Source: Spirochaetia bacterium (GTDB lineage: Bacteria > Spirochaetota > Spirochaetia > DSM-2461). From it: a stretch of 64,000 nt of DNA. Each line of letters begins with the position of its first letter. Position 1 is the stretch's first letter. The stretch is from assembly GCA_963668315.1 (NCBI GenBank), contig OY764216.1:5440001-5504000 (forward strand), given 5' to 3'. The translations under genes and the position numbers were made by a program. Shown piece after piece: positions 8,135-33,618 of this stretch. The notes under the pieces are model-generated. The model did no database searches and was not told the DNA's origin. It was given only the letters and a program-made list of their open reading frames with translations.

Positions 8135-11100
8135 ATGAGTTGCCGATTTTTGATGAACGTGATATTGGCCCTGGTGCTGGCCGTGTTCGCCGATCCGGGC
8201 CGAGCCCTCGGTGACGATTTAGACGACTTTCTCCGCCTGTCGGAGGAGTGCAAGAAGCAGTCGGATGCGGGCGAGTTTGATCGCGCGGAGAAGACAGCGC
8301 TTGCACTCCAGCGGCTGGCTGACGGGGCGTTGGCAGAACTCCCGCTTGCCAGGCTGGGGGCGGCTCGCACGCTGGGGACGATCTACTTCCGCCAAAGACG
8401 CTACGACGAAGCGGAACCGGTTCTGAAGCGAGCCTTGGCGATCAGCAAGGAGGCCTTCGGGAACGACGAGATGGCGGTGGGGGCGTGCCTCAACAGTCTG
8501 GCTCTCGTGTACCACAGCCAGGGACGGTACGACGACGCGAAGCCGCTCTACGAGCAGTCGCTGGCGATTGCCGAGAAGCAGCTAGGAAAGACTCATCCGA
8601 GTGTCGCGGCTGCACTCGGGAGCCTGGCGGAACTACACAGCGAGCAAGGTCGCCTCTCCGACGCGGAGCCGATGCTCGAGCGAGCCCTGGCGATCAACGA
8701 GCAGACTCTCGGCAAGGATCATCCGCAGACCGCCCTCTCTCTCCACAACCTGGCGAAGCTGCACGAAAAGCAGGGACACTTCGCCGAGGCGGAACCACTC
8801 CACCGGCGCGCCTTGTCGATCCTGGAGAAAGCTCTTGGGGAGGATCATCCCTACCTGGCGACGAGCTTGACCAGCCTGGCGAATATGTACTGCGCCCAAC
8901 AGCGGTTCACCGAGGCGGAGCCTCTGTTGAAGCGAGCCCTGACGATATCGGAGGCGGCCTTCGGACGTGACAACCCGGGGGTGGCCTCCGCCCTCAACAG
9001 CCTGGCCCTGCTGTATCAGAGTCAGGGCCGGTACGACGAAGCCAAGGCTTTCCACGAGCGGGCACTGGCCATCGCCAAGAAGACATTCGACGAGAACCAT
9101 CCGAATGTGGCCACGAGCCTCGACAGTCTGGCAGGCCTCTATCACAAGCAACGCCGCTATTCCGAGGCGGAGCCGCTCTACAAGCAGGCCCTGGCGATTC
9201 GCGAGAAGGCCTTTGGCCCCGACCATTCTGACGTGGGCCGGAGCCTCGACAACCTGGCCAGCTTGTACGCGGACCTGGGACGATATGCCGAAGCGCAGCC
9301 GCTTTACGAACGGGCCCTGGCGATCAAGGAAGAAGCTCTGGGCGCGGACCATCCCAGCGTGGCGACCAGCCTGAACAACCTGGCACTGCTGCTGGCGGAA
9401 CGGGCCAACTACGCCGAAGCGGAGCAACTCTTCGATCGATCCATAGCGATCCAGGAGAAGTGCTATGGCAGTGACGGGCTCGGCGTGCTGACCACCTTGA
9501 ACAACCGGGCCACACTGTGTGTCGATCAGGGACGCTATGCCGAGGCGGAGGGGCTTTATCGACGTGCACTGGCCATTGTGGAAGAAAACGTCACGAACGA
9601 TCATCCTGCCGTGGTGTCGTGCCTCAACTATCTGGCGGTCTTGTACCGGCTCCAGGGCCGCTCCTCTGAGGCGAAGGAGCTTTTCCTGCGAGCGCTCGCG
9701 ATCCAGAAGAAGTTGTTCGGGGAGGACAGTTGTGAATCTGCGGAAACACTCGGCAACTTGGCGGGCTTGTATTCGAAACAAGGCCGGTACGCGGAGGCGG
9801 AGCCGCTGTTCCTGCGCGCCATCGCCATTCAGGAGAAGTTCCTCGGCAAGGAACACATTCAATTGGCGATGAACCTCGAGAATCTGGCATTGCTGTATTA
9901 CAATCAAGGCCGTTTTGAGGACGCCGTACTGCTGGTGAAGAGGTCGCTGGCCATCCGCGAGAAGCTGTTTGACGGTACGCACCCCAGCGTGGCCGACAGT
10001 CTCGGCAGTATGGCCGTGCTTCTCAGCACCGTGAATGCCGACACCGAGGCGGAGCGTCTTTATCAGCGATCCCTGGAATTGCACGAAAGCGTTTTGGGAC
10101 CATCGCATCCGCGCGTGGCGGAAGGGCTGGTCAATCTGGCCGGTCTGTATGTGAAGCAGGAACGTTTCGCGGAGGCGGAACCGCTGCTCCGTCGATCGCT
10201 CAAGCTCTGGGAAGAGTCGTTTGGACCAGAACATCCGAACGTAGCTCAGTCGCTCATCTCGCTTGTCGATCTGCATTTGAAGCAGGGACGCGGCCGTGAC
10301 GCGGAACCGCTCGCCGATCGCGCCGTTGCGATCACAAACCGCGAGGGAATTGCCGAAGGGGAACGCGCGGCCAGCTATGCCCGCCGCGCAGAAGCACGTT
10401 GGGCTCTTGAGAAACGGGAAGACGCTGTGGCGGACCTCCGCGAAGCAATGCGTCTGGCCACCCGGATACGCAGGCAAGCGTCGGGGATCGAGCAGCAGCG
10501 GTCCGGCGCGTTTGCGATGCACCTTCATCTGTTTGAGCGGATGGTCTTCTGGCAAACCGAGTTGCACGATTTTGACAAGGCTTTGGAGGCGATGGAGCAA
10601 TCCCGTGCCCAAGGTCTGCAGGACCTGATGCGGGCAAACGGGGTCGATATGCTCGAAGGCCTTCCCGAGGAGACTGCATCGCGTCTGAACAAGGCGGAAG
10701 GCCTGGCTCAAGCGGATGTCGTCTCCTTGCAGAAGCGATTCAAAACGCTGCAAGATCGAACGGACATGGAATCGGATGAAAAGGCCGAAGAAGGCAAGCG
10801 GCTTCTGGAGGAGCTTGCCGCGGCCCGGGAACGGCTGGTTCAGGCCTGGTCGAATATCAAGAACGCCAGCCCCGCTTATCGGCTCCTGCTCGCTGAGGAC
10901 CGACAGCCCGTGCGGATCGAAACCATGGGCAAGGAGTTGGCCGAATCGGACACGCTTGCCCTGCAATATCTGCTCGGTTCGGAGCACGGATTTCTGCTTG
11001 CCTACGGCGGCGGAATCGAACCGATCCTCGTGGAACTGAAACTCAACGACACGCAGGCCTCACTTCTGAACAGCGAAGCGGGACCGCTCACCGCGATTCG

Positions 11101-12175
11101 CGCCCGGGAGATTCTCTTCGGCCAACGCGATCGTGACGGCTTGTTGCACGGATTGACGAGTCACGAGGCCATCGGCGAGGACGCCGGCCCGGATTCAGGC
11201 ACGGTCGACCAATTGAATGTCCTCTGGACCGTCCTGATCCCCGACGAGCGGCTTCGCGAGCAACTCGTCGACGGCGAGACCTTTCGCAGGCTCCTGATCA
11301 TTCCCGACGGCGCACTTGCCCGATTGCCCTTTGAGACGCTTGTCGTCGATGGTCATCGCGTCGATCCCACCTACCTCCTGGACGCCGGTCCGCCGACCAT
11401 GTACGCTCCTTCGGCCACCGTGTTTCACAACCTCAAGCATCGAGAGGTCTCTGCTTCCAAGGGCGAGACGCTGACTGTCGGCGATCCGAGCTACGGTTCG
11501 ACGGACGAGTCCGGGGATCGCGGAACGGTTCCGGGGGAACTTGAAATTGCCAGCCGCTTCGCCCAGCTTGGACGGCTTGCGGATTTGCCTTGGACCGGTG
11601 ACGAGAGCTGCTGGATCAAGGAATCCTGCGAGGACAAGCATGTGCCGGTGGTCCAGTTCACGAAAGAGAAGGCGACCGAGGAGAACGTTCGCAACAGCAT
11701 TCGAGGCCGGTCGCTGGTCCATTTCGCCTGCCATGGGCTGGCGGACGACGAGTGTGGGAACCTGTTCGGGGCCCTGGCCTTTACACCGGTCGATGCGGGC
11801 AATCCGTCGAACGACGGCTTTCTGACCGTAGCCGAGATGTTCGATCTGGACCTGCACGCCTGCGAGTTGGCGATCCTGAGCGCCTGCGATACGAACATCG
11901 GTCCCAATCAGCGTGGGGAAGGCACGTGGTCGATGTGCCGGGGAATGTTGACATCGGGCGCCCGGCGTGTCGTCACCACCGACTGGCAGGTGGCCGACGA
12001 GGCTTCGGCTCACCTGGTGTATGCATTCGTCTATTACCTTCACGAGTGTGAGTCGGGCGAGCCGGACTACACCGAGTGCCTGCGGGATGCCCGGCTTTCG
12101 ATTCGGAACCATGATAATCGGCAATGGCGGCACCCGTATTTCTGGGCGCCGTTTGTGTTGATGGGACCGGAGTAG
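8135..12175 (+). CDS. Exported TPR-CHAT protease 1
   Basis: Signal peptide; 42-aa TPR array (HPxVAxSLxxLA); CHAT HFACHG, LSACDT, HPYFWAPF. Confidence 0.95.
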   Translation: MSCRFLMNVILALVLAVFADPGRALGDDLDDFLRLSEECKKQSDAGEFDRAEKTALALQRLADGALAELPLARLGAARTLGTIYFRQRRYDEAEPVLKRALAISKEAFGNDEMAVGACLNSLALVYHSQGRYDDAKPLYEQSLAIAEKQLGKTHPSVAAALGSLAELHSEQGRLSDAEPMLERALAINEQTLGKDHPQTALSLHNLAKLHEKQGHFAEAEPLHRRALSILEKALGEDHPYLATSLTSLANMYCAQQRFTEAEPLLKRALTISEAAFGRDNPGVASALNSLALLYQSQGRYDEAKAFHERALAIAKKTFDENHPNVATSLDSLAGLYHKQRRYSEAEPLYKQALAIREKAFGPDHSDVGRSLDNLASLYADLGRYAEAQPLYERALAIKEEALGADHPSVATSLNNLALLLAERANYAEAEQLFDRSIAIQEKCYGSDGLGVLTTLNNRATLCVDQGRYAEAEGLYRRALAIVEENVTNDHPAVVSCLNYLAVLYRLQGRSSEAKELFLRALAIQKKLFGEDSCESAETLGNLAGLYSKQGRYAEAEPLFLRAIAIQEKFLGKEHIQLAMNLENLALLYYNQGRFEDAVLLVKRSLAIREKLFDGTHPSVADSLGSMAVLLSTVNADTEAERLYQRSLELHESVLGPSHPRVAEGLVNLAGLYVKQERFAEAEPLLRRSLKLWEESFGPEHPNVAQSLISLVDLHLKQGRGRDAEPLADRAVAITNREGIAEGERAASYARRAEARWALEKREDAVADLREAMRLATRIRRQASGIEQQRSGAFAMHLHLFERMVFWQTELHDFDKALEAMEQSRAQGLQDLMRANGVDMLEGLPEETASRLNKAEGLAQADVVSLQKRFKTLQDRTDMESDEKAEEGKRLLEELAAARERLVQAWSNIKNASPAYRLLLAEDRQPVRIETMGKELAESDTLALQYLLGSEHGFLLAYGGGIEPILVELKLNDTQASLLNSEAGPLTAIRAREILFGQRDRDGLLHGLTSHEAIGEDAGPDSGTVDQLNVLWTVLIPDERLREQLVDGETFRRLLIIPDGALARLPFETLVVDGHRVDPTYLLDAGPPTMYAPSATVFHNLKHREVSASKGETLTVGDPSYGSTDESGDRGTVPGELEIASRFAQLGRLADLPWTGDESCWIKESCEDKHVPVVQFTKEKATEENVRNSIRGRSLVHFACHGLADDECGNLFGALAFTPVDAGNPSNDGFLTVAEMFDLDLHACELAILSACDTNIGPNQRGEGTWSMCRGMLTSGARRVVTTDWQVADEASAHLVYAFVYYLHECESGEPDYTECLRDARLSIRNHDNRQWRHPYFWAPFVLMGPE

Positions 12176-12216
12176 GCTCTGCTCTGGCATTTATACATTA
12201 CCGGAGGGATGCTACG

Positions 12217-15200
12217 GTGAAAGCGATTTGCGTTGGCACTGCCTTACAAGTGATCGTGTTCTTGAACTTCGTTTCGCCGCTCGCGGGAGCCGAGTGGGAG
12301 ACGTTGAACGAACAGGCGTTGGAGCTGCGTGCGAAGGGCAAGTACGCGAAGGGCCTCGACGTGGCTGACAAGGCTGTCAAGAGTGCGAGAAGAGCATTCG
12401 GCGGCGATAGTCCGGAATACGCGATTTCTGTGAACACGCTTGCCATGCTCCACCTCTCCCAGAAACAGTACGCGCAAGCAGAGAGGCTTTTCAAGGATTG
12501 TCTTTCAGTCTTGGAGAACAGTCTAGGCAGGAGCCACCCGGAGCGAATGAACGTTCTGGTGAATCTGGCAGGTTCCTACGTCGAGCAGCGTCGCTATGAT
12601 GAAGCGGAACCGCTCTACCGGGAGGCGATCGACACATGCATACGGAACAAGCATCCGTTCGCGGAGCAAGCCACATTAGGGCTCGCGTGGCTGCGATTCG
12701 TACGAGGTCAATACGATGAGGCCATACGCGAGTACGAACGGGCCAAAGGCCTTCGTTCGGCTCGGCTTGGACCAGATCATTCTGACGTCAAGGCGATCGA
12801 AATGTCCATTGCGGGAGTGCGTGACAAGGCGAAGAACGCAGAGAAGATGTCGGGTGGAATTGCGGCATACAAACGTTTGGAACGTGAGTATATGCAGTAT
12901 CGTGACCGAGGAGAGTTTGAGAAAGCGCTTGATGTTGCCGCAAAGGTGCAGAAGCTGGCCGAGAACGACTTGAAGAGTCAGCCCGCCTATTTCGGCACTG
13001 CGCTTATGATGCGAGCGATGGCAAACGGTGCTCTTCGTCGTCAGGGAGATGCCTTGAAGCTGTACGAAGAGGCCCAGCCGATTCTGGAAGAATCGCTCGG
13101 ACCGGACCACGGCTACGTCTTGACTTGTGTTGACGCCCGTCTTTCTTACTACATACAGCACGGTCGCGAGGCCGACGCTGTGTCGCTGTGCGATAGGGTG
13201 GTGTCGTTGATTGAGGACGCCTACGGACCAGATGATCAACGATTGGGAAGCCTCCTCTGCCGTCTGGCAGGTCTACACATCCAACAGGATCGGCTTGCCC
13301 AGGCCGAAGAGGTTTACGGGCGTGTGGTGAATCTCTTCGACGAACTGTCTCCAGAAGACCCGCTCATCGTGGCTTCCGCGTTGCGCGGCCTTGCAAGCGT
13401 TGCCAGGCGTCAGTGGCATTTTGATGATGCGGAAGCCCACTTGCGGCGTGCGTCCAGGTTACTGGCCGAGGCGGTTCCCGAACCCAAATGGGATATCGCG
13501 GCCAACACGGAGTCTTTGGGAGCGCTTTTCGCGGAACAAGGGCGTTACACCGAGGCTGACGATTGCTACCAACAGGCCCTGGCGATCATCGAGGAGGTCA
13601 ACGGGCCGGACGACATCCTCATGGCCCCGCCACTTGCCAGGCTTGCAGATACGAACATCCTTCGCGGCCGATATGGGAAAGCTGAGAGCTTCTGCCAGCA
13701 GGCTCTCGCAATCAACCTCAAGGTGCTCGGGCCCAAACATGCAAATACAGCCAAGTGTGTTGGAACATTGGCACAAATTTACGCAGATCAGGGTCTGTAT
13801 GCAGATGCGGAATCGCTCTATCGGCGTTGTCTGCCGGTATTGCAGGCGGAACTGGGACCGCGCCATGCCGACGTGATATCGGCACAAGTGAATCTTACGC
13901 TGCTTTATTGGGCGCAAGGAAGACACGAAAAGGCAGAGGAGATGTTGGGGGAACTACGCGATGTGCCCGACACTTTCGAGACGCATACCGGGTTAATTCA
14001 CGCCATGAGCCTTGTGTCTTCGAGCCAAGGACGCTATGCCGAAGGCACCAAGCACGCGCAGCAGGCACTCACCATGTGCCGAGAGGCGCTGCCACGCGAA
14101 CACCCGCGCGTGGCAACAAACCTTCAGACCTTGGGTATGATCCTTCAGCGTCAGGGGCGATATGTCGAAGCTGAACGGTTTGTACGCGAAGCTCTGGAAA
14201 TCCAAGAGGGTGTCTTTGGGAGGGGCAACCATATGATTGCCGCAGAACTCGTAAACCTGTCGCTCGTTCTCACTGGTTTGCAGCGTTACGACGAGGCGGA
14301 ATCGCTGTTGGATCGCGCCGTGAGATTCGTCGATGAAAGTGACTCTATGAGCGCCGATGTCGCGGCCTACGTGCTCAAGAGTCGTGCGCACTTGTACTGG
14401 AAGACGGGACGACAAAAGAAGGCAGTCACTGATCTGCGGCGAGGTATTCAGTTCATCTTCCAGATGCGAGGACAGGCATCGGGATCAGAACAGGAGCGTG
14501 CGACGACTTTCTCAAGATCGGCTAGTGCATTTGAGACGATGCTTTCATGGCAAACTCAGCTTCAAAACCTGCCGGAAGCGTTTGCAGCGATTGAGGGTTT
14601 CCGCGCACAAGGCCTCCAGGACTTGATGCAATCCAACGGCACGGACCTCCTCGAAGGTCTGCCCGACGAGACGGCGGCGAGTCTGCGCCTGGCCGAACTG
14701 GATGCGCAGGCCGAGGTGGCATCGCTGCAGAAGCAACTCGAAGTCCTGCAAATCCGCGCCGACATGGACTCTGAAGACAAGGTGCGGGAAGGAAAGCGGC
14801 TGATTGAGGCTCTTGGGGAGGCGCGCCAGGGTCTCGTGCAGGCCTGGGCGGATATCAAGAACGCCAGCCCCGCCTACCGGATGGTCGTGACGGAGGATCG
14901 AGAACCGGTGCGGTTCGAGGCGTTCCAGCAGGAACTTGGAAACTCCGATACGGTTGCACTGCAATACTTGCTCGGTGGAGAAAACGGTTTTCTGCTTGCC
15001 TACGGCGGCGGAATCGAACCGGCACTGATCACGTTGGAGATCACTGACACTCAGTCCGAGGTGTACGGCTGCGATGCCGGGCCGCTGACGGCTGCTCGCT
15101 TTCGGCAGGTTCTTCTGGGCAGCAAGGATCGGCCGGGACTTCTCCGTGACTTGACGAACTTTGGGGAGGTGAGTGATGAAGGTGTGCCGTCGAAGGATGC

Positions 15201-16173
15201 CCTTGACGCGTTAAGAACGATGTGGGCTGTTCTCGTGCCCGATGAGACGCTGCGTGAGAAGCTCGTGGATGGTAAGAGCCTCAAACGCCTGTTGATTCTT
15301 CCGGACGGCGTCCTTGCCCGATTGCCTTTCGAAGCCCTGGTCGTGAACGACGATCCGCAAGCTCCGGAGTATCTTCTCGACAACGGTCCGCCGACCATGT
15401 ACGCTCCTTCGGCCACCGTGTTTCACAACCTCAAGCATCGAGAGGTGTCTGATTCCAAGGGCGAGACGCTGACCGTGGGCGATCCGAGCTACGGTTCGAC
15501 GGACGAGTCCGGGGATCGTGGAACGGTTCTGGAGGAACTTCAGATTGCCAGTCGCTTCGCCCATCTTGGACGGCTTGCCGACCTGCCTTGGACCGGTGAC
15601 GAGAGCTGCTGGATCAAGGAATCCTGCGAGGACAAGCATCTGCCGGTGGTCCAGTTGACAAAAGAGAAGGCGACCGAGGAGAACGTTCGCAATAACGTTC
15701 GAGGCCGTTCGCTGGTTCACTTCGCCTGCCATGGTCTGGCGGACAACGAGTATGGGAACCTGTTCGGGGCCCTGGCCTTGGCGCCGGTCGATGCAGGTGA
15801 TCCGTCGAACGACGGCTTCCTGACCGTGGCCGAGATGTTCGATCTGGACCTGCACGCCTGCGAGCTGGCGATCCTGAGCGCCTGCGACACGAACATCGGC
15901 CCCAATCAGCGTGGGGAAGGCACATGGTCGATGTGCCGCGGCATGCTCACATCGGGAGCCCGGCGTGTGGTCACCACCGACTGGCAGGTGGCCGACGAGG
16001 CTTCGGCTCACCTGGTGTATGCATTTGTCTATTACCTGCACGACTCCGAATCGGACGGACGTGACTACGCCGAATGTCTGCGTAACGCCCGGCTTTCGAT
16101 TCGGAACCACGACACTCGCCAGTGGCGGCACCCGTATTTCTGGGCGCCGTTTGTGTTGATGGGACCGGAGTAG
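12217..16173 (+). CDS. Exported TPR-CHAT protease 2
   Basis: GTG start after GGAGGG; signal peptide ending AGA; TPRs; intact His/Cys CHAT motifs. Confidence 0.95.
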   Translation: MKAICVGTALQVIVFLNFVSPLAGAEWETLNEQALELRAKGKYAKGLDVADKAVKSARRAFGGDSPEYAISVNTLAMLHLSQKQYAQAERLFKDCLSVLENSLGRSHPERMNVLVNLAGSYVEQRRYDEAEPLYREAIDTCIRNKHPFAEQATLGLAWLRFVRGQYDEAIREYERAKGLRSARLGPDHSDVKAIEMSIAGVRDKAKNAEKMSGGIAAYKRLEREYMQYRDRGEFEKALDVAAKVQKLAENDLKSQPAYFGTALMMRAMANGALRRQGDALKLYEEAQPILEESLGPDHGYVLTCVDARLSYYIQHGREADAVSLCDRVVSLIEDAYGPDDQRLGSLLCRLAGLHIQQDRLAQAEEVYGRVVNLFDELSPEDPLIVASALRGLASVARRQWHFDDAEAHLRRASRLLAEAVPEPKWDIAANTESLGALFAEQGRYTEADDCYQQALAIIEEVNGPDDILMAPPLARLADTNILRGRYGKAESFCQQALAINLKVLGPKHANTAKCVGTLAQIYADQGLYADAESLYRRCLPVLQAELGPRHADVISAQVNLTLLYWAQGRHEKAEEMLGELRDVPDTFETHTGLIHAMSLVSSSQGRYAEGTKHAQQALTMCREALPREHPRVATNLQTLGMILQRQGRYVEAERFVREALEIQEGVFGRGNHMIAAELVNLSLVLTGLQRYDEAESLLDRAVRFVDESDSMSADVAAYVLKSRAHLYWKTGRQKKAVTDLRRGIQFIFQMRGQASGSEQERATTFSRSASAFETMLSWQTQLQNLPEAFAAIEGFRAQGLQDLMQSNGTDLLEGLPDETAASLRLAELDAQAEVASLQKQLEVLQIRADMDSEDKVREGKRLIEALGEARQGLVQAWADIKNASPAYRMVVTEDREPVRFEAFQQELGNSDTVALQYLLGGENGFLLAYGGGIEPALITLEITDTQSEVYGCDAGPLTAARFRQVLLGSKDRPGLLRDLTNFGEVSDEGVPSKDALDALRTMWAVLVPDETLREKLVDGKSLKRLLILPDGVLARLPFEALVVNDDPQAPEYLLDNGPPTMYAPSATVFHNLKHREVSDSKGETLTVGDPSYGSTDESGDRGTVLEELQIASRFAHLGRLADLPWTGDESCWIKESCEDKHLPVVQLTKEKATEENVRNNVRGRSLVHFACHGLADNEYGNLFGALALAPVDAGDPSNDGFLTVAEMFDLDLHACELAILSACDTNIGPNQRGEGTWSMCRGMLTSGARRVVTTDWQVADEASAHLVYAFVYYLHDSESDGRDYAECLRNARLSIRNHDTRQWRHPYFWAPFVLMGPE
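14836..16173 (+). repeat. Near-identical CHAT-coding repeat; partner 22645-23982, shorter partners about 11387-12175 and about 19940-20312
   Basis: Direct comparison: same length (1338 nt) as the partner and few substitutions. Confidence 0.9.
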
Positions 16174-20312: not shown

Positions 20313-20346
20313 TGGTCACAAGACTCATCTCGACTCGGAGAGCACC

Positions 20347-24104: not shown

Positions 24105-25226
24105 TTGATGCGACCTCGACAAATACAGGGAACCTTCTGGATCGTAATCCTGGGCGTTTTGGCGGGACCGGTCGCGGGCCAGATTGCGGTGGCTCCGCCG
24201 ATGCCCGACCATGCTTCGGTCGGCAAGACGTGGGTGGTTGCGATCGGCGTCGGCAAGTATGAGCACTTGCAGTCATTGGCTTATACGTTGGCTGATGCCA
24301 AGGCATTTGCCGACGCCTTCGAGGAGGTGGGATTGGTCAACCGACGGCAAGTGCGGCGGGTGACCGACGGCGATGCCGCGATTTCGGACGCCAAGGCGCT
24401 CCTCAGGCTGCTCGAAGGGCAAATGGGCAACGCCGGTTCACAGGACACCTTCGTCCTCTTCTACGCCGGTCATGGCTACAGTTCCGAAGACGGAAAGGCC
24501 TTTCTGGCGCCGGCGGGATTCGATTTGGATCGGCCGGCTGAGACGGGGATTTCGATGGAACGCCTCCGTGAGGTATTGGACGCGTGCCCCGCTCGTGTGA
24601 AGTGCGTCATCCTCGACGCGTGTTACAGCGGCGGGTTCAGCACGGACCGGCAGTTCGACGGGCAGGCCGCCGTGGATTTGCTCAAGAGCGCTCGCGGCAC
24701 GGTCGCGATATGCAGCAGCACCGACCGGCAGCCGAGCCTGGAATCGGCAGAACTCGAGCACGGTGTGTTCACGTATTGGCTGGTTCGCGGACTTCGCGGA
24801 GACGCCAATTCGCAGATCGACACGGTCATCGATGCGGCGGAACTGTTTCGCTACGTCAAGGACCGGGTGGCCAAGACGGCGGACGAAGCGGGAGGTCTCG
24901 TGCAGCAGCCGACCTGGGGCCTGGACCGCATGCCCGAGATCCCCACGGTGATCGAATTGCGACGTCCCGACCGGCCGAGTGTGCTGGTGCCGATGAAGGC
25001 CGCGCCGCTTCCTCCGGATCCGAAGGTACTCTCCGTTTTCCTGGACAGCATCGAACATTTCCCGCACGCCAATGCCCGAAATGCGATCGGCATCTCGAAA
25101 TGGGTGCTGGCGAACGCTCCTCCCGGCTCCAGTCTCGCAAGGCGAGCCCAAGCGCATATCGACAAGCTCGACAAGATGATCCTGGAAGGCACGCTGCGTC
25201 TGCCGCCGCCGGGAGAGGAGGAATAG
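24105..25226 (+). CDS. Exported caspase-like (C14) protease with short helical C-terminal domain
   Basis: Signal-like N-terminus; FYAGHG, ILDACYSG, HGVFTYWL. Confidence 0.9.
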   Translation: MMRPRQIQGTFWIVILGVLAGPVAGQIAVAPPMPDHASVGKTWVVAIGVGKYEHLQSLAYTLADAKAFADAFEEVGLVNRRQVRRVTDGDAAISDAKALLRLLEGQMGNAGSQDTFVLFYAGHGYSSEDGKAFLAPAGFDLDRPAETGISMERLREVLDACPARVKCVILDACYSGGFSTDRQFDGQAAVDLLKSARGTVAICSSTDRQPSLESAELEHGVFTYWLVRGLRGDANSQIDTVIDAAELFRYVKDRVAKTADEAGGLVQQPTWGLDRMPEIPTVIELRRPDRPSVLVPMKAAPLPPDPKVLSVFLDSIEHFPHANARNAIGISKWVLANAPPGSSLARRAQAHIDKLDKMILEGTLRLPPPGEEE

Positions 25227-25403: not shown

Positions 25404-25865
25404 ATGAGAGACAGATGGTTGTTTGTGGCTGCCGGACTCCTTTTGGTCGCTTGCCTGGGATGTTCGTCCGAACCGCCGGCGGACTCGAAGACGGGGCAGA
25501 AGCCCGACCCCCCTGCCCAGGAGCAAGCAGTTCCCTCCGCGCCTGGTGACGAGCAAGGCCAGGTCGACCTGAAGCAGGCTCCCGTGGCTGTGCCCAGCAA
25601 GACGGGCCAGGAGCAGTCGGAGGTTCCTCCCGCACCAGGTGACGGACAAGAACAGGTTAGTCAGAAACAGGCTCCCGTGGCTGCGTCTGCCAAGGCAGGT
25701 TCGGATCAGCTGAAGATCCCTGCTGCACCTGGTGACGGGCAAGGTCAGGTTAGTCAGAAACAGGCTCCCGTGGCTGCGCCCGGCAAGTCCGCCCCGGAAA
25801 AATCAGAAGCTCAGCCCGCGCCGGGCGACCAGTCGGGGGCAGCGAACGAGAAGCAGACGCAGTAA
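25404..25865 (+). CDS. Lipoprotein with 31-aa Gln/Lys/Pro-rich repeats
   Basis: GGAG RBS; lipobox-like CLG-C; PGD repeats starting at 25542, 25635, 25728, 25821 (93-bp period). Confidence 0.8.
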   Translation: MRDRWLFVAAGLLLVACLGCSSEPPADSKTGQKPDPPAQEQAVPSAPGDEQGQVDLKQAPVAVPSKTGQEQSEVPPAPGDGQEQVSQKQAPVAASAKAGSDQLKIPAAPGDGQGQVSQKQAPVAAPGKSAPEKSEAQPAPGDQSGAANEKQTQ

Positions 25866-25971: not shown

Positions 25972-26784
25972 ATGAAAGAAAGAAAGACAGGCCGGCTGAT
26001 GCCACTCGCGGTGGTTCTTCTGGGACTCACCGCCATGGTAACCGTCGGCGGAGAGCAACCCGACAAGCCGCTGGACAAGCTTGGGCCGGCGTGGCAGGTG
26101 GGTGATTCGTGGAAAGTGCGAGCCGTGACGATCCAATCACAAGCGGCCGACAAGAGTTCCGAGCAGCAACAGCAGGCGAAGAAACCTGTTGACTGGCAGT
26201 TCACCGTCACCGGCACGGAGAAAATCAAGAATCGCGACTGTTACCGGGTTTCGGTCACTTGCCTGACGAAGGGGCCGAACCAACCGGTCACGACTCTGTG
26301 GTTCGACGTGGAGAACCGGACGTTGACGCGAGTGGAAGCGAAGATCCTGATCAAGGGCAAATGGCGAGTCTTCACCGAGACCTACGTTTCCCAGGATGGG
26401 AAACCTTGCCCGGTCCTCGGTCCGATTCCGGCGCTTCCCTTGGACTTCCCCGTGTTCACCGAGGAAGGCGGGACAAAGAACCTCGCGTCTCAGACCTACG
26501 AGGCCATCTACGGGGACAAGGGCGTGAAGTCCATCGACGACGTCGGTTTCGCCTTCTCGGTTGATCAGAGCTTCTCTCCGGCAAAGGCCGACCACGTGAA
26601 GTCGTTGGCGCCGACCAGTGAAGGCGAGGGAGTTGTGGAAGTGGAAATCCGTGGTGCACGTCGCCGCGTGTCTCAACTCTGGCAACCCGGCGCACCTTGG
26701 CCCATCTATAGCAACAACGGCATGACGGAAGCTCGGCTCGTGGAAGTCAAGCGTGCCGGCAACGCCGAGGAGGAGGTGCAGTGA
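25972..26784 (+). CDS. Exported beta-rich protein of unknown function
   Basis: GGAGG RBS, signal peptide, stop overlaps the next start. Confidence 0.85.
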   Translation: MKERKTGRLMPLAVVLLGLTAMVTVGGEQPDKPLDKLGPAWQVGDSWKVRAVTIQSQAADKSSEQQQQAKKPVDWQFTVTGTEKIKNRDCYRVSVTCLTKGPNQPVTTLWFDVENRTLTRVEAKILIKGKWRVFTETYVSQDGKPCPVLGPIPALPLDFPVFTEEGGTKNLASQTYEAIYGDKGVKSIDDVGFAFSVDQSFSPAKADHVKSLAPTSEGEGVVEVEIRGARRRVSQLWQPGAPWPIYSNNGMTEARLVEVKRAGNAEEEVQ

Positions 26785-28817
26785 TGATACGCTTCACGAA
26801 ACACAATCGCCTGCCGATTGCGGCAGTTCTGCTTTCCCTGTCCGCCTGTCTTGCGGCCGTCTCTCCGAGTTGCGCCGAAGTGGAAGAGGCACGTACGGAC
26901 ACCGATCCGTGGTCCGGCTACTGGTGGCCGATCTCTCGGGGCGAAATGCTCGTTCCGCTCGGCAAATACGACGCCCTGATCGGCGCCCGTGCAGCCGCAT
27001 GGGAGCGGGCCAACAATCCTCCCGGGGCGAACGTTCCCAAGTGGTTCGGCTATTGTCACGCCTGGGCCGCCTCGTCCATCATGGAACCCGAACCGGCCGC
27101 GGCGATCCGCGTTCAGAACGTGGGACTCGGTGTGGGCGATCAGAAGGGACTGCTGGCGGCATGCCATGCCAACGATGTGGCCAATTCCTTCGGTGATCGT
27201 TTTGGCGACGGGCAAGGCAGCGAAGATCCTCACGATCTGCCTCCCGACGAGTTCTGGATGTTGCTCAAACGGCACATTCGCGAACAGGGCGTTCCCTTGA
27301 TTGCCGATATCGAAGCCGGTGACGAAGTGTGGAACTACCCGATCTTTGCGTATCGCGTCGAATACGCTCCGGCGGGTGGGACCGACCGATACCAGGGGAC
27401 GATTTCCATCTGGATGGCAGACGATGCTGTGCCCATGGACTACGTCGGGGTCAAACGGCTGTTCAAGAAGTACCTTTTCGAGGTTTCCATGCGTAACGGC
27501 AGCGTTGTCATGGGAACGGGAAAATGGCTTGGCACCAGCCGCGACAACCATCCCGACTTCGCTTGGTTTCCCTACGTCGTTCGTCCTGAGAATCCCCAAG
27601 TCGATTACGGCAAGGTGACGAAGATCCTGGGAACGCGGCCGGCCGGCGGCACCACTCCCCCGGATTCCGACACGCCAGCTTCCGCCAATACTCCGGATTC
27701 GACTCCAACGGGCACGCCTGCAGGTACGCCCAGTGGTACGCCCAGTGGTACACCCAGTGGTACACCCAGTGGTACACCCAGTGGTACACCCAGCGGTACA
27801 CCCAGCGGTACACCCAGTGGTACACCCAGTGGTACACCCAGCGGTACACCCAGTGGTACACCCAGTGGTACACCCAGTGGTACACCCAGCGGTACACCCA
27901 GCGGTGCACCCAGCGGTACACCCAGCGGTACACCCAGCGGTACACCCAGTGGTACGCCCAGTGGTACGCCCAGTGGTACGCCCAGCGGTACGCCCAGTGG
28001 TACGCCCAGCGGTACACCCAGTGGTACACCCAGTGGTACACCCAGTGGTACACCCACGCCCAGCGGCACCCCCGGCGGAACTCCGGGAGCTGCACCGAGC
28101 GGCGAACAACCTTCCCGGCCCCCGAGCGGTGTTGTCGTCCAGGCTCGTCCCGAGCCGTTGCTGCTGGATCCGATGGATCTGGTTTCGCTGATCGCCACGC
28201 GAACGTCGGACTTCGCATTGGATATCACGGTCGACCGTTTTGACGGCGGAAAGTACCGGGAAGGCGACCTGGTGTCGATTTCCGGCAAGTCAGCGAGAAG
28301 CGGTTATCTGTACCTGTTGGCCGTCGACACGGAAGGCGTTCCCTCGCTGCTCTACCCGCAGCCCGGCGACGACAACCGTATTGAAGGCGGCGTGGAGTTC
28401 GAGGTTCCGGCGCGGAAGTCCAAGTACCAGTTTCGGCTGTTTCCGCCCCTGGGCGACTACCGGATCAAGGGAATCGTTTGCGAGAAGCCGCTGGAATTCT
28501 CCGGTCTTGTGACGGGTTCCCAACAGCAGGTCGCCTCGTCACCGCAGGCGGCCCAGTCGTCGCAGACCTCCGACGGCAAGGAGGCAGAGACGTCGGACGT
28601 GGCGATTGACCAGCAGAAGTTTCGTTGGAACCCGACGCAACGCGCGCAAGTGAAACAGTTGCTCACGGAGTACAAGAGCAAGGGCAACCTGTCGCAGGAA
28701 CAGGTCGATCATGTCGACCCGCACAACGTTCTCGGTGAGTTTGCCCAGGATGAAGTGGCTTTTTACGTTGGCAAACGCGGGAAGACGCCGCTCCAATCCG
28801 GGAAGGTCCAGCGCTGA
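26781..28817 (+). CDS. Exported GP42/TGase-elicitor-like transglutaminase domain + (GTPS)n linker + DUF4384-like domain
   Basis: PWSGYWWP, WFGYCHAWA, GDQKGLL and EVWNYPI resemble Phytophthora GP42-family motifs; C-terminal GYLYLL...LLYP domain. Confidence 0.75.
   Translation: MMIRFTKHNRLPIAAVLLSLSACLAAVSPSCAEVEEARTDTDPWSGYWWPISRGEMLVPLGKYDALIGARAAAWERANNPPGANVPKWFGYCHAWAASSIMEPEPAAAIRVQNVGLGVGDQKGLLAACHANDVANSFGDRFGDGQGSEDPHDLPPDEFWMLLKRHIREQGVPLIADIEAGDEVWNYPIFAYRVEYAPAGGTDRYQGTISIWMADDAVPMDYVGVKRLFKKYLFEVSMRNGSVVMGTGKWLGTSRDNHPDFAWFPYVVRPENPQVDYGKVTKILGTRPAGGTTPPDSDTPASANTPDSTPTGTPAGTPSGTPSGTPSGTPSGTPSGTPSGTPSGTPSGTPSGTPSGTPSGTPSGTPSGTPSGTPSGAPSGTPSGTPSGTPSGTPSGTPSGTPSGTPSGTPSGTPSGTPSGTPSGTPTPSGTPGGTPGAAPSGEQPSRPPSGVVVQARPEPLLLDPMDLVSLIATRTSDFALDITVDRFDGGKYREGDLVSISGKSARSGYLYLLAVDTEGVPSLLYPQPGDDNRIEGGVEFEVPARKSKYQFRLFPPLGDYRIKGIVCEKPLEFSGLVTGSQQQVASSPQAAQSSQTSDGKEAETSDVAIDQQKFRWNPTQRAQVKQLLTEYKSKGNLSQEQVDHVDPHNVLGEFAQDEVAFYVGKRGKTPLQSGKVQR
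27723..28055 (+). repeat. 12-bp tandem repeat GGTAC(A/G)CCCAG(T/C), about 27.7 units, encoding (GTPS)n
   Basis: Seen directly. Confidence 0.98.
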
Positions 28818-28869: not shown

Positions 28870-30345
28870 ATGATGAGAAGAACCGCCCTGTTTACGCTTG
28901 GAGTCGCGCTGCTGGGATGCTGCCTCGCAGTCGCCGAGGGGGCCGAGAAGCGGCGGCAAGGCCAGGCCACCGCCCGCGGCATTGCCGTTGAGGGAATTCA
29001 GAACTCGACCCCCCAGTTCTCCGTTCGCGTGAGCGTGGATCGGAAGGACCGCACCTACCGCGCAGGCGAACTGGTCGTGGTAACGGTGGAGTCGAGCCGG
29101 GCCGGGTATCTGTATCTGCTGTACTGTGATGCGGAAGAGAACGTTTACGCGGTGTTTCCGAACCAGTACCAGAAGTCGAACCGGATCGAGGCCAACCAGA
29201 AGATCGTGGTCCCGGCGGCCGGCTCGAACTTCCGGTTTCGCATCACCAATCCTTTCGGCAGCGAGATTCTGAAGGCCATCGTGACCGACGAGCCGGTCAA
29301 GGCCGCTGGACTGCCCGATCTTACCAAGAGCGATGCCACCCAGTTGGACGCCGACACACTTCGCGCAGCATTCAAGGGAATGACGGTCGAGGGGGTAGAG
29401 ACGCCTTCATCCCAGGACGAGACGCCTTCGTCCCAGGACGAGACGGACGCCGACGAGACGGACGCCGACGAGACCTGCGTCTGGGCAGAGCACTCCATTG
29501 AACTTCGCACGCTGCCAGCCAACGCCGAACGCGAGATCCACAAGCCTCGCCGTTTCGCCGTGGTGATCGGGATCAGCGATTACTTAAGCCCCGGAATTCG
29601 TGATCTCACGGTCTGCCACGAGGACGCGAAGGTGATGGGGGCCCTGTTGATGGAGAAGTGCGGCGTTGCCGAAGAGGACTGCATTATGCTTCTCAACGAA
29701 GAAGCGACGATGGAGAATGTCCGGCGGGTCTTCTGTGAGGCGTTGCCGAAGCACACGCGGGAAGGCGACGTGATCTTCATCTTCTGGTCGGGTCACGGCG
29801 GCCGCTGTGCCGACGAGGGCGGCGACGAAGCCGATGGCTACGACGAGTATCTGCCTTTGTACGACAGCAAGCGGTTCGAGATGGACACCATGCTCATGGA
29901 CGACACCTTCGGACGCTGGGTCCAGGATCTCGACGGGCGCAAGATCGTCGTCATTCTCGATGCCTGCCACAGCGGAGGCCAGACGAACAAGGCCAAGTCG
30001 CTCTCCAAAGCGATTGGTGACGACGAAAGCTCGGACTGGATGCCGTTCGACTTCGTGGGCAACGAGCTCTCCCGGGTCAAGGACATCGGCCAAGAGGACG
30101 CCGCGATCGTCGCCTCCTCCGTGTCGGCGGAAGTCTCGCACGAGCGGCTCGAGGGCGACCTCAGCGTGTTGACCTACTTCCTCGTGGAGGCGATCAACAA
30201 CGCCACCTCGCCGATAACACTCGACAAGCTGGTCGAGAAGGTCAAGCCCAAGGTCGACGCCTACGTCAAATCGCGGTTTCCCGGCGCCAAACAGTCGGTG
30301 TTCTACCAGACCGACTTGACAGAGCCGCTGATGGTGAATCCGTAG
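28870..30345 (+). CDS. Exported DUF4384-like + caspase-like (C14) protein; paralog of 6464-8059
   Basis: AGGAG RBS; signal peptide; FWSGHG, ILDACHSGG. Confidence 0.9.
   Translation: MMRRTALFTLGVALLGCCLAVAEGAEKRRQGQATARGIAVEGIQNSTPQFSVRVSVDRKDRTYRAGELVVVTVESSRAGYLYLLYCDAEENVYAVFPNQYQKSNRIEANQKIVVPAAGSNFRFRITNPFGSEILKAIVTDEPVKAAGLPDLTKSDATQLDADTLRAAFKGMTVEGVETPSSQDETPSSQDETDADETDADETCVWAEHSIELRTLPANAEREIHKPRRFAVVIGISDYLSPGIRDLTVCHEDAKVMGALLMEKCGVAEEDCIMLLNEEATMENVRRVFCEALPKHTREGDVIFIFWSGHGGRCADEGGDEADGYDEYLPLYDSKRFEMDTMLMDDTFGRWVQDLDGRKIVVILDACHSGGQTNKAKSLSKAIGDDESSDWMPFDFVGNELSRVKDIGQEDAAIVASSVSAEVSHERLEGDLSVLTYFLVEAINNATSPITLDKLVEKVKPKVDAYVKSRFPGAKQSVFYQTDLTEPLMVNP
29398..29475 (+). repeat. 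In-frame microduplications (21 bp x2, 15 bp x2) encoding ETPSSQDETPSSQDETDADETDADET
   Basis: Seen directly. Confidence 0.9.
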
Positions 30346-30411: not shown

Positions 30412-33400
30412 ATGTGCTGTGGAGCGGCAAGACACCTGTTGAACATGTTGAGTGCCATGGTTGCGAGCCTTGTCCAATGTCTGTTGCTGCTGCAAGTGGC
30501 CCTGTGGTGTGCGTGCGTGAGCGGCGCTGAGGCCGATCCGCCGAGCCGGTTCAGCGATGAGCTCGCAAAGGCATCGCAGTTTCTCGCACAAGGTAATCGT
30601 ATCGGGGCATTCGAGATTGCCGATGGTCTGCTAACGCGGGCCAAGTATGTTCCATCCAGAAGAACCGATCTCCCGATCGCAATGCGAGATCTTGCCAACC
30701 GGCTTATGGATTACGGATACTACAGGGAAGCGGAGCCACTGTATCGGGCTGTTCTCGAGTTTTCTGAACGAATCGCCGGTCCGGATTCCGAGGCTGTGGC
30801 AACGAGCGCCAACAACTTGGGGCTTTGCTGTCTTCAGCAAGAGCGATATTCGGATGCCGAAGCACTTCTTAAGCGCTCGCTGCAGATCAGCGAACGTCGT
30901 CTCGGACCAACTCATCGACTGACCGCCGTGCGCTGTGACAATCTGGCAGTGCTGCACCAGGCTCTGGGCCGGTTCAACGAAGCGGAAATGCTTCAGCTGC
31001 GTGCTCTTCGCATCCTGGCGTCTCTACCGAATGCGTCAAAGTGCGACGAAGCCAACGTACTTGGAAACCTTGCAAGCGTACAACAGGACAAGGGATCTGC
31101 GATTGTCGCTGAGCGTGCCTATCAGCACGCGTTGGAGGTATTTGCGCATGCGTTCGGTGAGGACGCTCCGGAGACCGCTCACTGCCTTATGAATCTGAGC
31201 GTACTGTACGAAGAGAACGATCGATACGCAGAGGCGGAGAGCGCCTGCCAAAACGCCAGGAGGGTCCTTCTCCGCACCTTCCCGGCGGATCATCCGCGGA
31301 TCGCGTCGTGCAATAACAGCCTGGGAGCGATATACTGGAAGCAAGGACGCTATCGGGAAGCAGAAGCGAACCTCAAAGCGGCTCTTAACGCTCGTCAGAA
31401 GTGTTTTGGTCCGGGCCATTCGGAAACCGCGGTCACGGCCTCGAACCTCAGTGTGGTCTACTTGGATCAAGGCAGAATCACGGAAGCGGCCAATCTGCTC
31501 GAGGAGACGGTAGAAGTGCTGGAATCCGAGGACGGACCGGTGCATCCGCTCCTCGCTGGAGTTGTGTTGAATCTGGCAACTTGCCGGGTCGCCAAAGGGG
31601 ATAGAGCGGCAGCGGAGGGGCTGTATCGCCGCGCCCTGGAGATTCGTGAGAAGTCCCTTCCGGACGGTTCTCTGTCAACAATCAGCAGCCTGGAAGCCCT
31701 TGCGGGGTTCTATCTCGATGGCAGCCGGATTGAGCAGGCCGAACCGCTGATCGAACGCGCAGTTGCCCTCATTGACCGTCATGAAGCGGCTCCACCACGA
31801 TTGGTCAAGCAAGTGTACATGTCCAGGGCTGATTTGAAGTGGAAAACCAATCGTCGCGAGGACGCCGTCAGTGATTTGGAGGTGGCCATGCAACAGGGCG
31901 ATGCACTGCGCACTCATGCCTCCGGCGTCGAGACGGATCGGGCAAGGGCATTCTCTCAACATGTAGGCGTTTATGAGCGAATGGTGGCATACCAAACACA
32001 GTTGAGAGATGCCGGGAAGGCATTCGTAGCCATGGAGTCTTGTCGCGCGCAGGGATTGCAGGATTTGATGCGATCAAGCAATATTGACTTGCTCCAAAAC
32101 GTACCGGAGCCAACCGCGACCGCCCTGCGTGAGGCGGAGAGTCGAGCCCAAGCGGAATTGGCCGCATGGGAGAAGCAGTTTGAAGTTTTACGCACGCGAG
32201 CCGACATGAATGACGACCACAAGGTCGCCGAGGCCAAGCGACTCGAAGAAGAACTCGGTACCGCCCGGCAACGGCTTGTCCAGGCCTGGGCCAATATCAA
32301 GAATGCCAGCCCTGCCTATCGGCTCGTCGTTTCCGAAGATCGAGAACCGGTGCGGCTGGCAACGCTTCGGAAAGAACTGGACTCGTCAGATACGGTGGCG
32401 CTGCAATACATGCTCGGAAAGGAGAACGGATATCTGCTCGCCTATGGAGGGGGCAGAGAGCCGACCTTGACGGCCCTCCACGTCAGTCCGGCTCAGGCCG
32501 AGACGCTCGGATCCGAGTCCGGTCCTCTGACCTCGGCGCGGGCCCAGCAGATCTTGTTGGGCAGCAAGAATCGGCACGGGCTGCTCCAGGGGCTGACTGA
32601 TCTTCGGGCGATAAGCGTCGACGGCCTGCCGGCAAAGAGCACACTCGAACAACTTCGGACGTTCTGGTCCGTTCTGGTGCCCGACGAGTCGCTCCGCGAG
32701 CACCTCCTCGACGGCAAGAGTTTCAAGCGATTGCTCATCCTGCCCGACGGCGCATTGGCCCGACTGCCCTTCGAGGCCTTGCTCGTCGGTGACGATCCTG
32801 CAGATCCGGAGTACTTGCTCGATCGTGGCCCGGCAACCGTGTACGCTCCCTCCGCCACGGTCTTCCACAACCTCAAGCATCGTCGGAACGAAGCTTCGAG
32901 CGGGACAACGCTTACGGTTGGCAACCCAGACTACGGGGCCCGTGGAGAATCCGAGGATCGAGGCGGTGTTTTGGACGGGGTGAAGGTGGCAAGCCGCTTT
33001 GCCAGTCTGGGCAAGCTTTCCGATCTGCCCTGGACGGGCGACGAGAGCCGATGGATCAAGGAGACGTGTGAGGCCAAGGGCCTGCCCGTCCTTCAATTGA
33101 CGAAAGAGGCTGCCACCGAGGCCAATGTTCGCGAGAGCGTTGGCGGCCGCTCCATGGTGCACTTTGCCTGTCACGGACTGGCAGACGATTCCTATGGGAA
33201 CCTGTTCGGGGCGCTCGCGCTCACGCCGGTCGATGCGGGCGACCCGTCGGACGACGGGTTCCTGACGGTGGCGGAGATGTTCAACCTGAATTTGAAAGGT
33301 TGCGAACTGGCGATTCTCAGTGCGTGCGACACCAATATCGGGCCGAATCAGCGGGGCGAGGGCACATGGTCGATGTGCCGCGGGATGCTCACGTCGGGAG

Positions 33401-33618
33401 CCCGGCGGGTGATCACGACGGATTGGCAGGTGGCCGACGAGGCTTCGGCGCACCTGGTTTATGCCCTGGTGTACTATCTCCACGAATCCGAGGCCGGTCA
33501 GTGGGATTACGCCACGTCGTTGCGCGATGCGCGGCTTTCGATTCGGCAGCATGAAGAGAATGCCCATTGGCATCATCCCTATTTCTGGGCCCCGTTCGTT
33601 TTGATGGGGCCGGAGTAA
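30412..33618 (+). CDS. Exported TPR-CHAT protease 5
   Basis: Hydrophobic signal ending AEA (start may be 30445); TPRs; HFACHG and LSACDT. Confidence 0.95.
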   Translation: MCCGAARHLLNMLSAMVASLVQCLLLLQVALWCACVSGAEADPPSRFSDELAKASQFLAQGNRIGAFEIADGLLTRAKYVPSRRTDLPIAMRDLANRLMDYGYYREAEPLYRAVLEFSERIAGPDSEAVATSANNLGLCCLQQERYSDAEALLKRSLQISERRLGPTHRLTAVRCDNLAVLHQALGRFNEAEMLQLRALRILASLPNASKCDEANVLGNLASVQQDKGSAIVAERAYQHALEVFAHAFGEDAPETAHCLMNLSVLYEENDRYAEAESACQNARRVLLRTFPADHPRIASCNNSLGAIYWKQGRYREAEANLKAALNARQKCFGPGHSETAVTASNLSVVYLDQGRITEAANLLEETVEVLESEDGPVHPLLAGVVLNLATCRVAKGDRAAAEGLYRRALEIREKSLPDGSLSTISSLEALAGFYLDGSRIEQAEPLIERAVALIDRHEAAPPRLVKQVYMSRADLKWKTNRREDAVSDLEVAMQQGDALRTHASGVETDRARAFSQHVGVYERMVAYQTQLRDAGKAFVAMESCRAQGLQDLMRSSNIDLLQNVPEPTATALREAESRAQAELAAWEKQFEVLRTRADMNDDHKVAEAKRLEEELGTARQRLVQAWANIKNASPAYRLVVSEDREPVRLATLRKELDSSDTVALQYMLGKENGYLLAYGGGREPTLTALHVSPAQAETLGSESGPLTSARAQQILLGSKNRHGLLQGLTDLRAISVDGLPAKSTLEQLRTFWSVLVPDESLREHLLDGKSFKRLLILPDGALARLPFEALLVGDDPADPEYLLDRGPATVYAPSATVFHNLKHRRNEASSGTTLTVGNPDYGARGESEDRGGVLDGVKVASRFASLGKLSDLPWTGDESRWIKETCEAKGLPVLQLTKEAATEANVRESVGGRSMVHFACHGLADDSYGNLFGALALTPVDAGDPSDDGFLTVAEMFNLNLKGCELAILSACDTNIGPNQRGEGTWSMCRGMLTSGARRVITTDWQVADEASAHLVYALVYYLHESEAGQWDYATSLRDARLSIRQHEENAHWHHPYFWAPFVLMGPE

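Follow-up and report, generated by a model that had tools for sequence, protein, structure and literature searches.

Recombined protease ends and divergent TPR halves in a tandem TPR-CHAT gene array of likely planctomycete origin

We analyzed a window of 64,000 nucleotides (nt; contig OY764216.1, positions 5,440,001 to 5,504,000 of the forward strand, assembly GCA_963668315.1, filed as a Spirochaetia bacterium) that carries a tandem array of genes in which TPR repeats precede a CHAT protease domain; positions below are those of the window unless a prefix names another sequence. Four neighboring copies combine very different TPR halves with closely similar 3' ends, and we are confident that this similarity was made by recombination, probably in the form of gene conversion. 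For the whole picture, in which four tandem genes with recombined 3' ends encode predicted exported sensor-proteases feeding one caspase relay in the envelope, we see a somewhat better than even case. The array offers a clean case of a conserved output domain that keeps recombining while its sensors drift out of reach, and it provides four natural chimeras with a common catalytic end and different sensors, which makes the envelope cues of TPR-CHAT enzymes testable.

A preliminary description of this DNA had placed five TPR-CHAT genes here, and all five are present on the + strand: copy 1 (8135..12175; 1346 residues, 16 repeats), copy 2 (12217..16173; 1318 residues from the likely start), copy 3 (16245..20312; 1355 residues from the likely start), copy 4 (20347..23982; 1211 residues) and copy 5 (30445..33618; 9 repeats). 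We add a sixth, distant copy (37586..42259, +), which is unconverted and whose CHAT domain is 38% identical to those of copies 1-5. The arrays of copies 1-5 do differ in both sequence and length, as had been claimed: they hold 9-17 repeats of the 42-residue kinesin-light-chain type, and the TPR regions are 28-38% identical in all ten pairs. Maximum-likelihood change-point fits on pairwise mismatch place breaks at 14836/22645 for copies 2 and 4 (mismatch 0.443 before, 0.067 after), at 11386/15384 for copies 1 and 2 (0.406 to 0.084) and at 19944/15805 for copies 3 and 2 (0.331 to 0.057), the first two coinciding with tracts already quoted in that description. Pairs with copy 5 fall only from ~0.4-0.5 to 0.23-0.29.

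The tracts are nested. Copies 2 and 4 have theirs (14836..16173 and 22645..23982, both +) in common in full, including both CHAT sub-domains; the tract of copy 1 (11386..12175, +) comprises the entire caspase-like catalytic domain, and that of copy 3 (19944..20312, +) starts past the catalytic His and takes in the Cys of the dyad together with the C-terminus. Every tract runs to the stop codon, beyond which the spacers are unrelated. Identity within tracts is 90-95%, the longest exact run is 158 nt and the last 48 nt of copies 1 and 2 match exactly. The near-identity proposed for the CHAT DNA of copies 1-4 thus applies to all four over the last ~365 nt only, at 91-95%: copy 3 joins at 19944, its CHAT domain being 82% identical to that of copy 2 at the protein level, and 12-18% of four-fold degenerate sites still differ. 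The idea of a constant effector is borne out in part: copy 3 shares just the half after the catalytic His, and copies 5 and 6 are unconverted. The closest pair is formed by alternate copies, 2 and 4; homology that ends at the stop, together with this closeness of alternate copies, is not what whole-gene duplication would be expected to leave.

Silent sites tell recombination from selection. The fraction of four-fold sites that differ is 0.57-0.84 in the last TPRs and linker versus 0.12-0.18 inside every tract, and at the breaks themselves it falls from 0.51-0.79 to 0.12-0.18, a three- to five-fold step; copy 5 stays at 0.46-0.63 across all CHAT segments, that is, unhomogenized. Purifying selection alone might keep CHAT ends alike with no recombination at all, and the last 120 residues are indeed the most conserved segment, 87-97% identical even between unconverted orthologues. 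However, the silent-site steps occur at sharp, pair-specific points and appear neither in copy 5 nor in orthologues. Synonymous divergence is flat from the TPRs to the C-terminal end in four orthologous pairs of relatives (0.41-0.46 in L027/L037), with a step in none of the four, so the last segment is not constrained at silent sites. The drop at the breaks and the flat orthologues together argue that recombination, not selection alone, homogenized the tracts; for the main tracts, the silent-site result refutes selection as the sole cause, and we leave it only a sliver of probability overall.

Segment trees of 34-35 proteins lead the same way, conflicting with one another rather than being congruent. 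Upstream, only copy 5 and P0006 group together; segment A unites copies 2 and 4, segment B copies 1, 2 and 4, and in segment C every branch is short (the trees of segments H and A were made with care, those of B and C quickly). Two further pairs, P0023/P0079 and P0078/P0094, each presumably from one contig, unite in segment C only. Between copy 5 and its orthologue P0006, identity is 81% in the TPRs, 76% in the linker and 77, 76 and 93% in successive CHAT segments. Recognition domains that vary, as had been suggested, are therefore a matter of paralogs: the ratio of nonsynonymous to synonymous divergence (dN/dS) over the whole TPR domain is 0.07, 0.18 and 0.19 in three orthologous pairs of relatives, the fourth pair being saturated, and the TPR differences look like old paralog divergence, with no fast diversification seen at the whole-domain level. 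The view of conversion as ongoing has to be tempered in a similar way. Silent steps, conflicting trees and orthologue controls favor conversion, or an equivalent homologous exchange, among copies 1-4; yet synonymous divergence within tracts is still 0.15-0.30 with dN/dS of 0.07-0.25, which speaks for episodic exchange followed by purifying selection.

Within the tracts, the patchwork is weaker than the main tract pattern. Among the shared variants that had been listed, GDPSYGSTDESG (copies 1+2), NHD[N/T]RQW (1+4 and 2+3) and HDSESQARD (3+4) are true shared variants, but REVSASKG, assigned to copies 1+4, reflects a change private to copy 2 and is uninformative. Triplet tests over 15384-16170 are significant in two of three cases (P = 0.009 and 0.006, against 0.37 for the third); of 12 such tests on the last 365 nt, 4 reach P < 0.05, uncorrected. 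A runs test on informative sites gives P = 0.066 for 15384-16170 and 0.30 for the last 365 nt, and a Sawyer-type test of runs, applied to 174 silent sites, is significant only for copies 2 and 3 (P = 0.0003) and copies 1 and 3 (0.008). Copy 4 has a less converted island at ~23283-23322. A divergent cluster of 12 differing codons in 16 in copy 4 (P = 0.0001) is most likely the island whose counterpart in copy 2 is 15474-15513, or one close to the 5' part of the tract. A single identical run, of 52 codons in copies 2 and 4 (P = 0.001), points to a fairly recent event.

The mosaic could also be a consensus of collapsed repeats, and the source contig does contain a chimeric join, 11 kb before the window begins, as well as an indel error there. 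Its G+C content is ~51% over the contig and 58-63% in the last 200 kb. Contigs of four sequencing runs break at C1:5,428,914/5, which is L001:7914/7915, with loose ends on both sides that continue elsewhere, and depth at this point changes from 60, 183 and 189 to 4, 17 and 17 in three runs and from <12 to ~71 in the fourth. The contig body has spirochaete FlaA genes, and the tail has PF07596, which we take to be a planctomycete-marking family; 73 of 74 related genome loci are assigned to Planctomycetota, among which we count Kuenenia. The shift in G+C, the break in depth, the two marker families and the affiliation of the relatives together identify the window as part of a mis-joined piece, so that the last 195.6 kb of the source contig are likely planctomycete DNA on a spirochaete contig. 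The join creates a false fused open reading frame, and the array lies 19 kb past it. Since the window is foreign to the spirochaete lineage, 40 relatives of the source genome, with best CHAT matches of 30-33%, are useless as controls. For database users, the source assembly holds 195 kb of another phylum, with its genes filed under the wrong organism.

The breaks of the array recur in an independent assembly of reads. Runs X1-X4 contain 88-94% of 1029 sampled words, and Logan contigs from X1, X2 and X4 cover 10994-11415 (X1, X2), 12147-14865, 19132-19988 and 20261/20894-22674 with 0 differences. They span the three breakpoints and end where 31-mers shared among copies begin, which is where boundaries are predicted to fall, and shortly before each of the four stop codons a contig of its own begins. 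The 12 other letters found in X1, X2 and X4 are without exception paralog bases. Logan contigs are a second assembly of the reads, as distinct from a second organism, and carry no phasing of single variants between shared runs of at least 31 nt, so an artefact would affect only the fine phase of single variants; the same step also occurs in relatives. The consensus-artefact explanation, which the preliminary description had asked to be excluded, is thus highly improbable. Run X5 (share 0.12) yields short pieces at a depth of ~2-4 and may come from a related strain; they include a joint that links a CHAT stop to 24073 and six letters at 20085-20117, one matching no copy and two copy 5 only. We judged it too thin and left it unused.

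The relatives show how far such steps extend. At least two complete CHAT ends occur in 18 of 154 loci (the window included, some loci being on the same contig). Among nine frame-intact neighboring pairs on seven contigs, the 3' silent step is present in two (L032, 9/59 vs 75/158, P = 7e-6; L025, 11/64 vs 69/187, P = 0.002), marginal in one (P = 0.035) and absent in six. This test left out frameshifted copies and pairs in L024, L036, L059, L070, L089, L108 and L164; in nucleotide identity, an increase in the last segment is confined to the pairs in L089 (0.84) and L108 (0.78). Two five-copy arrays have tracts between non-adjacent copies, for example with a rise from 72-74% to 94-95%, and some of these could be whole-gene duplicates. 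Two weak matches in the search of these arrays (E 0.14 and 0.63) were dropped as they are not CHAT ends. The two arrays, L165/L080/L018 (G045:C4) and L166 (G044:C32), adjoin DUF4384-caspases and contain many frameshifts, probably sequencing errors. Protein groups presumably from the same contig are 84-100% identical in the last 120 residues and 28-62% in the TPRs. Locus scans with narrow queries returned nothing.

The main rival to conversion within one genome is exchange with related strains. Cassettes of TPRs plus the 5' part of CHAT would be swapped or inserted by homologous recombination in conserved CHAT sequence, so that the 3' ends come from a population pool, a true reverse of polymorphic-toxin cassettes. 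The similar silent divergence of all tracts (0.12-0.18) could mark one donor pool, copies 1-4 have no orthologue among the best matches and copy 5 has one, and the between-genome pair L035/L043 rises in identity from 0.40 through 0.65 and 0.74 to 0.88 from linker to C-terminal end. An orphan second CHAT 3' end of ~25 codons also follows copy 5 (33662..33728, +, within 33619-33728), ~82% identical to the other copies; because the same five bases follow the CHAT end of copy 5 and the orphan end, it suggests a short duplication of some age or what is left of a copy since lost. Single crossovers, however, would leave the last CHAT bases linked to the old next TPR, and here identity runs to the stop and ends there; moreover, four-fold divergence in the last segment is <0.25 in only 1 of 3441 between-genome pairs. 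We regard cassette exchange as unlikely, although it is the strongest competitor of gene conversion.

How conversion would come to be confined to the protease ends may have a simple answer. Purifying selection would keep these ends similar enough for RecA-type exchange between neighbors, and each exchange would reset the protease end, the TPRs (28-38% amino acid identity) being too divergent to join. On this view no dedicated machinery would have to be invoked. Ranked against the background of identity to the unconverted copy 5, the 45 nt that follow the breaks come out at the 100th, 91st and 93rd percentile, which indicates that tracts begin on islands that selection had kept, and breakpoints on residual homology would fit a passive homology ratchet. 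We therefore favor passive, episodic gene conversion seeded on selection-kept islands of homology.

Conversion might instead be selected because it keeps one substrate-docking surface for a local caspase or DUF4384 partner. The catalytic Cys and the C-terminal helices do fall within the segment common to all four copies. In Csx29, residues of the C-terminal CHAT2 part form the docking site of Csx30 (PMC10028731), and one of the breaks is close to where the catalytic domain begins (model residue 295, with metacaspases aligning from 313-320). The same segment is, however, the most conserved one in unconverted orthologues (87-97%), the breaks fit residual homology, copies 5 and 6 are unconverted in the same operon, seven of nine tandem pairs lack the step and the TPRs give no diversifying signal at the whole-domain level. 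Selected homogenization is accordingly an improbable addition to the passive conversion that we prefer.

All six copies encode recognizable CHAT proteases: PF12770 matches after the TPR repeats with 170-181 bits against a Pfam cut-off of 24. The His-Cys motifs are intact in copies 1-6 and in five caspases of the cluster, and the CHAT motifs align with those of DdvA and Csx29. A predicted model of the last 557 residues of copy 2 (mean predicted local distance difference test score 85.5) superimposes on Csx29 with Z 27.0 and a root-mean-square deviation of 3.3 over 351 aligned residues, on separase with Z 22.9 and on DdvA with Z 21.9; judged from this model, the CHAT end has the two-part fold of the separase/Csx29 type. 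In it the join of copy 1 falls at residue 295 and that of copy 3 at residue 436, between the catalytic His and Cys. The DUF4384 domain of neighboring proteins is modeled as an immunoglobulin-like sandwich. Foldseek gave it no match at E <= 0.001, a wide fold search gave only generic immunoglobulin-like or macroglobulin matches (Z up to 7.6) with Csx30 absent from them, and a sequence search against solved structures returned nothing significant.

The genes around the array suggest what these proteases might do. From 4268 to 42259 every gene is on the + strand, with intergenic gaps of -4 to 245 nt, and the gaps between TPR-CHAT copies are 34-71 nt. At the head stand an ECF-type (extracytoplasmic function) sigma factor (4268..5254, +; TIGR02937 above cut-off, E 3.8e-14; Sigma70_r4_2; start codon uncertain) and a predicted anti-sigma factor of 386 residues (5251..6411, +), whose start overlaps the sigma stop by 4 nt. 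The latter has an HxxxCxxC zinc motif, one transmembrane helix at about residues 100-133 called from hydropathy, and C-terminal TPRs (Pfam); its match to the anti-sigma model is weak and under cut-off. Proteins with DUF4384 and a caspase-like protease lie before copy 1 (6464..8059, +; predicted signal peptide, His-Cys motifs present) and before copy 5 (28870..30345, +; a conserved-core member). Further caspase-like proteases are encoded after copy 4 (Peptidase_C14; 24108..25226, +; predicted signal peptide), by gene f (33864..36002, +), which adds two further domains and is the commonest single neighbor type in relatives, and at 36036..37493 (+). Hydrophobic N-termini predict a signal peptide for every cluster protein except the sigma and anti-sigma factors. 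One operon, which recurs across Planctomycetota, thus gathers six CHAT and five caspase-like enzymes, each with predicted export. Copy 5, with its orthologue P0006, occupies the conserved-core position in the commonest gene order, DUF4384-caspase, TPR-CHAT, gene f. Among 93 related loci of at least 12 kb, a caspase is found in 42, DUF4384 in 30, the C-terminal domain of gene f in 32, any of these three in 49 and a transglutaminase in 2. The family is patchy, present in at least 20 of 301 genomes of the class with seven candidates scored per genome.

By analogy with characterized systems, a receptor repertoire with a common output would be the likeliest function. Each TPR solenoid may bind its own cue, a protein or a peptide, and bring the dyad into alignment by allostery, as in Csx29; an activated CHAT domain could then cleave neighboring caspase-like proteins, as SAVED-CHAT cleaves PCaspase, and cleavage of the outer domain of the membrane anti-sigma factor would release the ECF sigma factor. 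In this exact form, in which exported TPR-CHAT proteins act as initiators, caspases act as executioners and the anti-sigma factor gives up its sigma partner, we hold the relay to be plausible but slightly short of an even chance. A bolder version would make the cluster an undescribed, extracytoplasmic, innate-immune-like receptor repertoire of planctomycetes, in which TPR sensors carry catalytic halves kept interchangeable by selection via conversion and one exported initiator-executioner caspase cascade, with DUF4384 docking and a transglutaminase effector, leads to an ECF sigma response; this we consider doubtful.

The exported enzymes might alternatively serve offense or processing, acting on competitors, hosts or the cell's own surface proteins, for example the transglutaminase, with TPRs that choose substrates and no relay. 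Every protease has a predicted signal peptide, TPRs of the kinesin-light-chain type are peptide-binding, and the operon contains a transglutaminase and a repeat-rich lipoprotein. Against this stand the sigma/anti-sigma pair at the head of the operon, which is found again in L075 and L077, the narrow, signal-gated initiator role of the bacterial TPR-CHAT and SAVED-CHAT enzymes characterized so far, and the lack of immunity-like small genes in the 34-71 nt between copies. A purely secreted role therefore seems to us a minority prospect beside the envelope relay.

Several observations weigh against the combined interpretation of recombined ends and a shared envelope relay. Signal peptides were called by hydropathy and inspection, with no trained predictor, and a sigma factor occurs in only 3 of the 93 long related loci, whose flanks were limited to 10 kb. 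Because seven of the nine neighboring pairs have no significant step, homogenization is not required for the system. The 195-kb piece has about one tenth of the depth of its host contig in three runs, with at least one indel error nearby, and the confirming runs represent two samples of one study, possibly including the source of the assembly, with the library type unrecorded. No orthologue of copies 1-4 was found, a search with the TPRs of copy 4 giving none above 45%; among shorter proteins, the only match was a 235-residue C-terminal fragment at 77%. Lacking such orthologues, conversion within the genome is indistinguishable from exchange with related strains.

Several known systems resemble parts of the array. 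Csx29 is a TPR-CHAT protease under allosteric control. The protein it cleaves, Csx30, docks at the C-terminal CHAT2 and has a sigma factor in its hold (PMC10028731), and DUF4384 is one type of Csx30 C-terminal domain, often fused to proteases (10.1101/2022.08.17.504292). The Csx29-Csx30-CASP-sigma system of type III-E CRISPR thus has in common with the array TPRs, a two-part CHAT fold, a His-Cys dyad and a sigma factor in the locus; unlike it, the array has no Cas7-like gene that we could find, predicted export, long kinesin-light-chain-type repeats, six copies, and DUF4384 fused to caspases and a transglutaminase. No RAMP-family (Cas7-like) gene was found in the source assembly, which includes 195 kb of this organism's DNA, Cas models matched none of 14 proteins scanned, and none of 14 integrase matches lies in the 195-kb tail. 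In Haliangium ochraceum, PCaspase is activated through cleavage by SAVED-CHAT and in turn cleaves a sigma factor and an inhibitor (10.1101/2023.06.23.546230). This system, too, sets a CHAT enzyme next to caspase-like proteases and a sigma factor, and it is our model of how initiator and executioner are ordered. Its sensor, SAVED, binds cA3 in the cytoplasm, whereas here we find TPRs, predicted export and five caspases. DdvA of Myxococcus xanthus is a periplasmic TPR-CHAT protein upstream of an ECF sigma factor (PMC11506125), and the DdvA/DdvS system resembles the array in connecting an extracytoplasmic TPR-CHAT part with an anti-sigma of the zinc type and an ECF sigma factor. DdvA joins its anti-sigma and TPR-CHAT parts in a single membrane protein; the array has a separate gene for each, and the 386-residue anti-sigma factor, with a transmembrane helix and TPRs but no CHAT, is not a single chain of the DdvA type. 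Bacterial CHAT/caspase cascades described in the literature covered here are cytoplasmic, with CRISPR or CBASS, DdvA being the membrane-bound exception, and other conflict systems with caspase and CHAT domains (PMC8195603, PMC10907252) are, as far as their accessible text shows, not this cluster.

The closest evolutionary likeness is with Tlp2, Tlp3 and Tlp4 of Campylobacter jejuni, paralogous chemoreceptors with divergent sensory domains (~30% identical) on shared output domains (PMC9769880). Their signalling domains are identical, however, and here the shared ends are 90-95% identical, nested and partial, with a protease output in a tandem operon; the array is, in short, Tlp2/3/4-like evolution on Csx29/DdvA-like proteases. 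Coral TPR-CHAT genes also form tandem copies with variable TPR length and CHAT domains that cluster by species (PMC12314368), but they are animal genes in hundreds of copies, independent duplication is given as the cause, and neither export nor a caspase operon is mentioned in the accessible part of that report. Antigen sensors of multicellular bacteria diversified by diversity-generating retroelements (PMC10907252), planctomycetes included, are sensor repertoires with CHAT effectors too; they rely on reverse-transcriptase hypermutation of C-type lectin domains, whereas the TPRs here are under purifying selection and a search for reverse transcriptase (RVT_1) found none in the source assembly and its 195 kb from this organism, with a positive control in 3 of 14 genomes. 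In fungal NLR repeats, concerted evolution runs in the opposite direction (PMC10197012). A literature search, with most subscription journals outside its scope, found no description of the cluster or of conversion among bacterial TPR-CHAT genes.

The remaining genes and features are of less certain bearing. A small protein with a predicted signal peptide (3763..4095, +) lies upstream of the sigma factor; it has no family match, and its membership in the cluster is uncertain. Between the caspase after copy 4 and copy 5 are a predicted lipoprotein with low-complexity repeats (25404..25865, +), an unnamed protein with a predicted signal peptide (25972..26784, +), which stands next to the same neighbor in two related loci and matched only unnamed clusters, at 0.91-0.92, in an atlas search, and a protein with a transglutaminase-elicitor domain, a GTPS repeat linker and DUF4384 (26784..28817, +), in which ~30 GTPS tetrapeptide repeats (27705-28102) join the two domains. 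Copy 6 has an unrelated N-terminal domain of 450 residues, a possible PDZ-like insert and an insertion within the CHAT domain. A scan for promoters and terminators gave 5 and 17 sites, no more than expected by chance. Just upstream of the window, WD40-caspase and caspase genes, one of them gene f-like, form a second cluster in divergent orientation (L001:8774-19291, -); two of its open reading frames probably belong to a single WD40-caspase gene that an assembly error of one base at L001:16993 has split. Within the window, a beta-lactamase-family gene at 1659-3130 is in two overlapping frames, which may reflect an assembly indel. A likely cluster for a ribosomally synthesized and post-translationally modified peptide occupies 46109-50146, with a radical SAM gene, an ABC transporter and a Cys-rich precursor peptide of ~62 residues in three tandem copies of ~300 nt (47364-48243). 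Finally, 50151-50248 and 57247-57347 form an inverted match of 100 nt at 83%.

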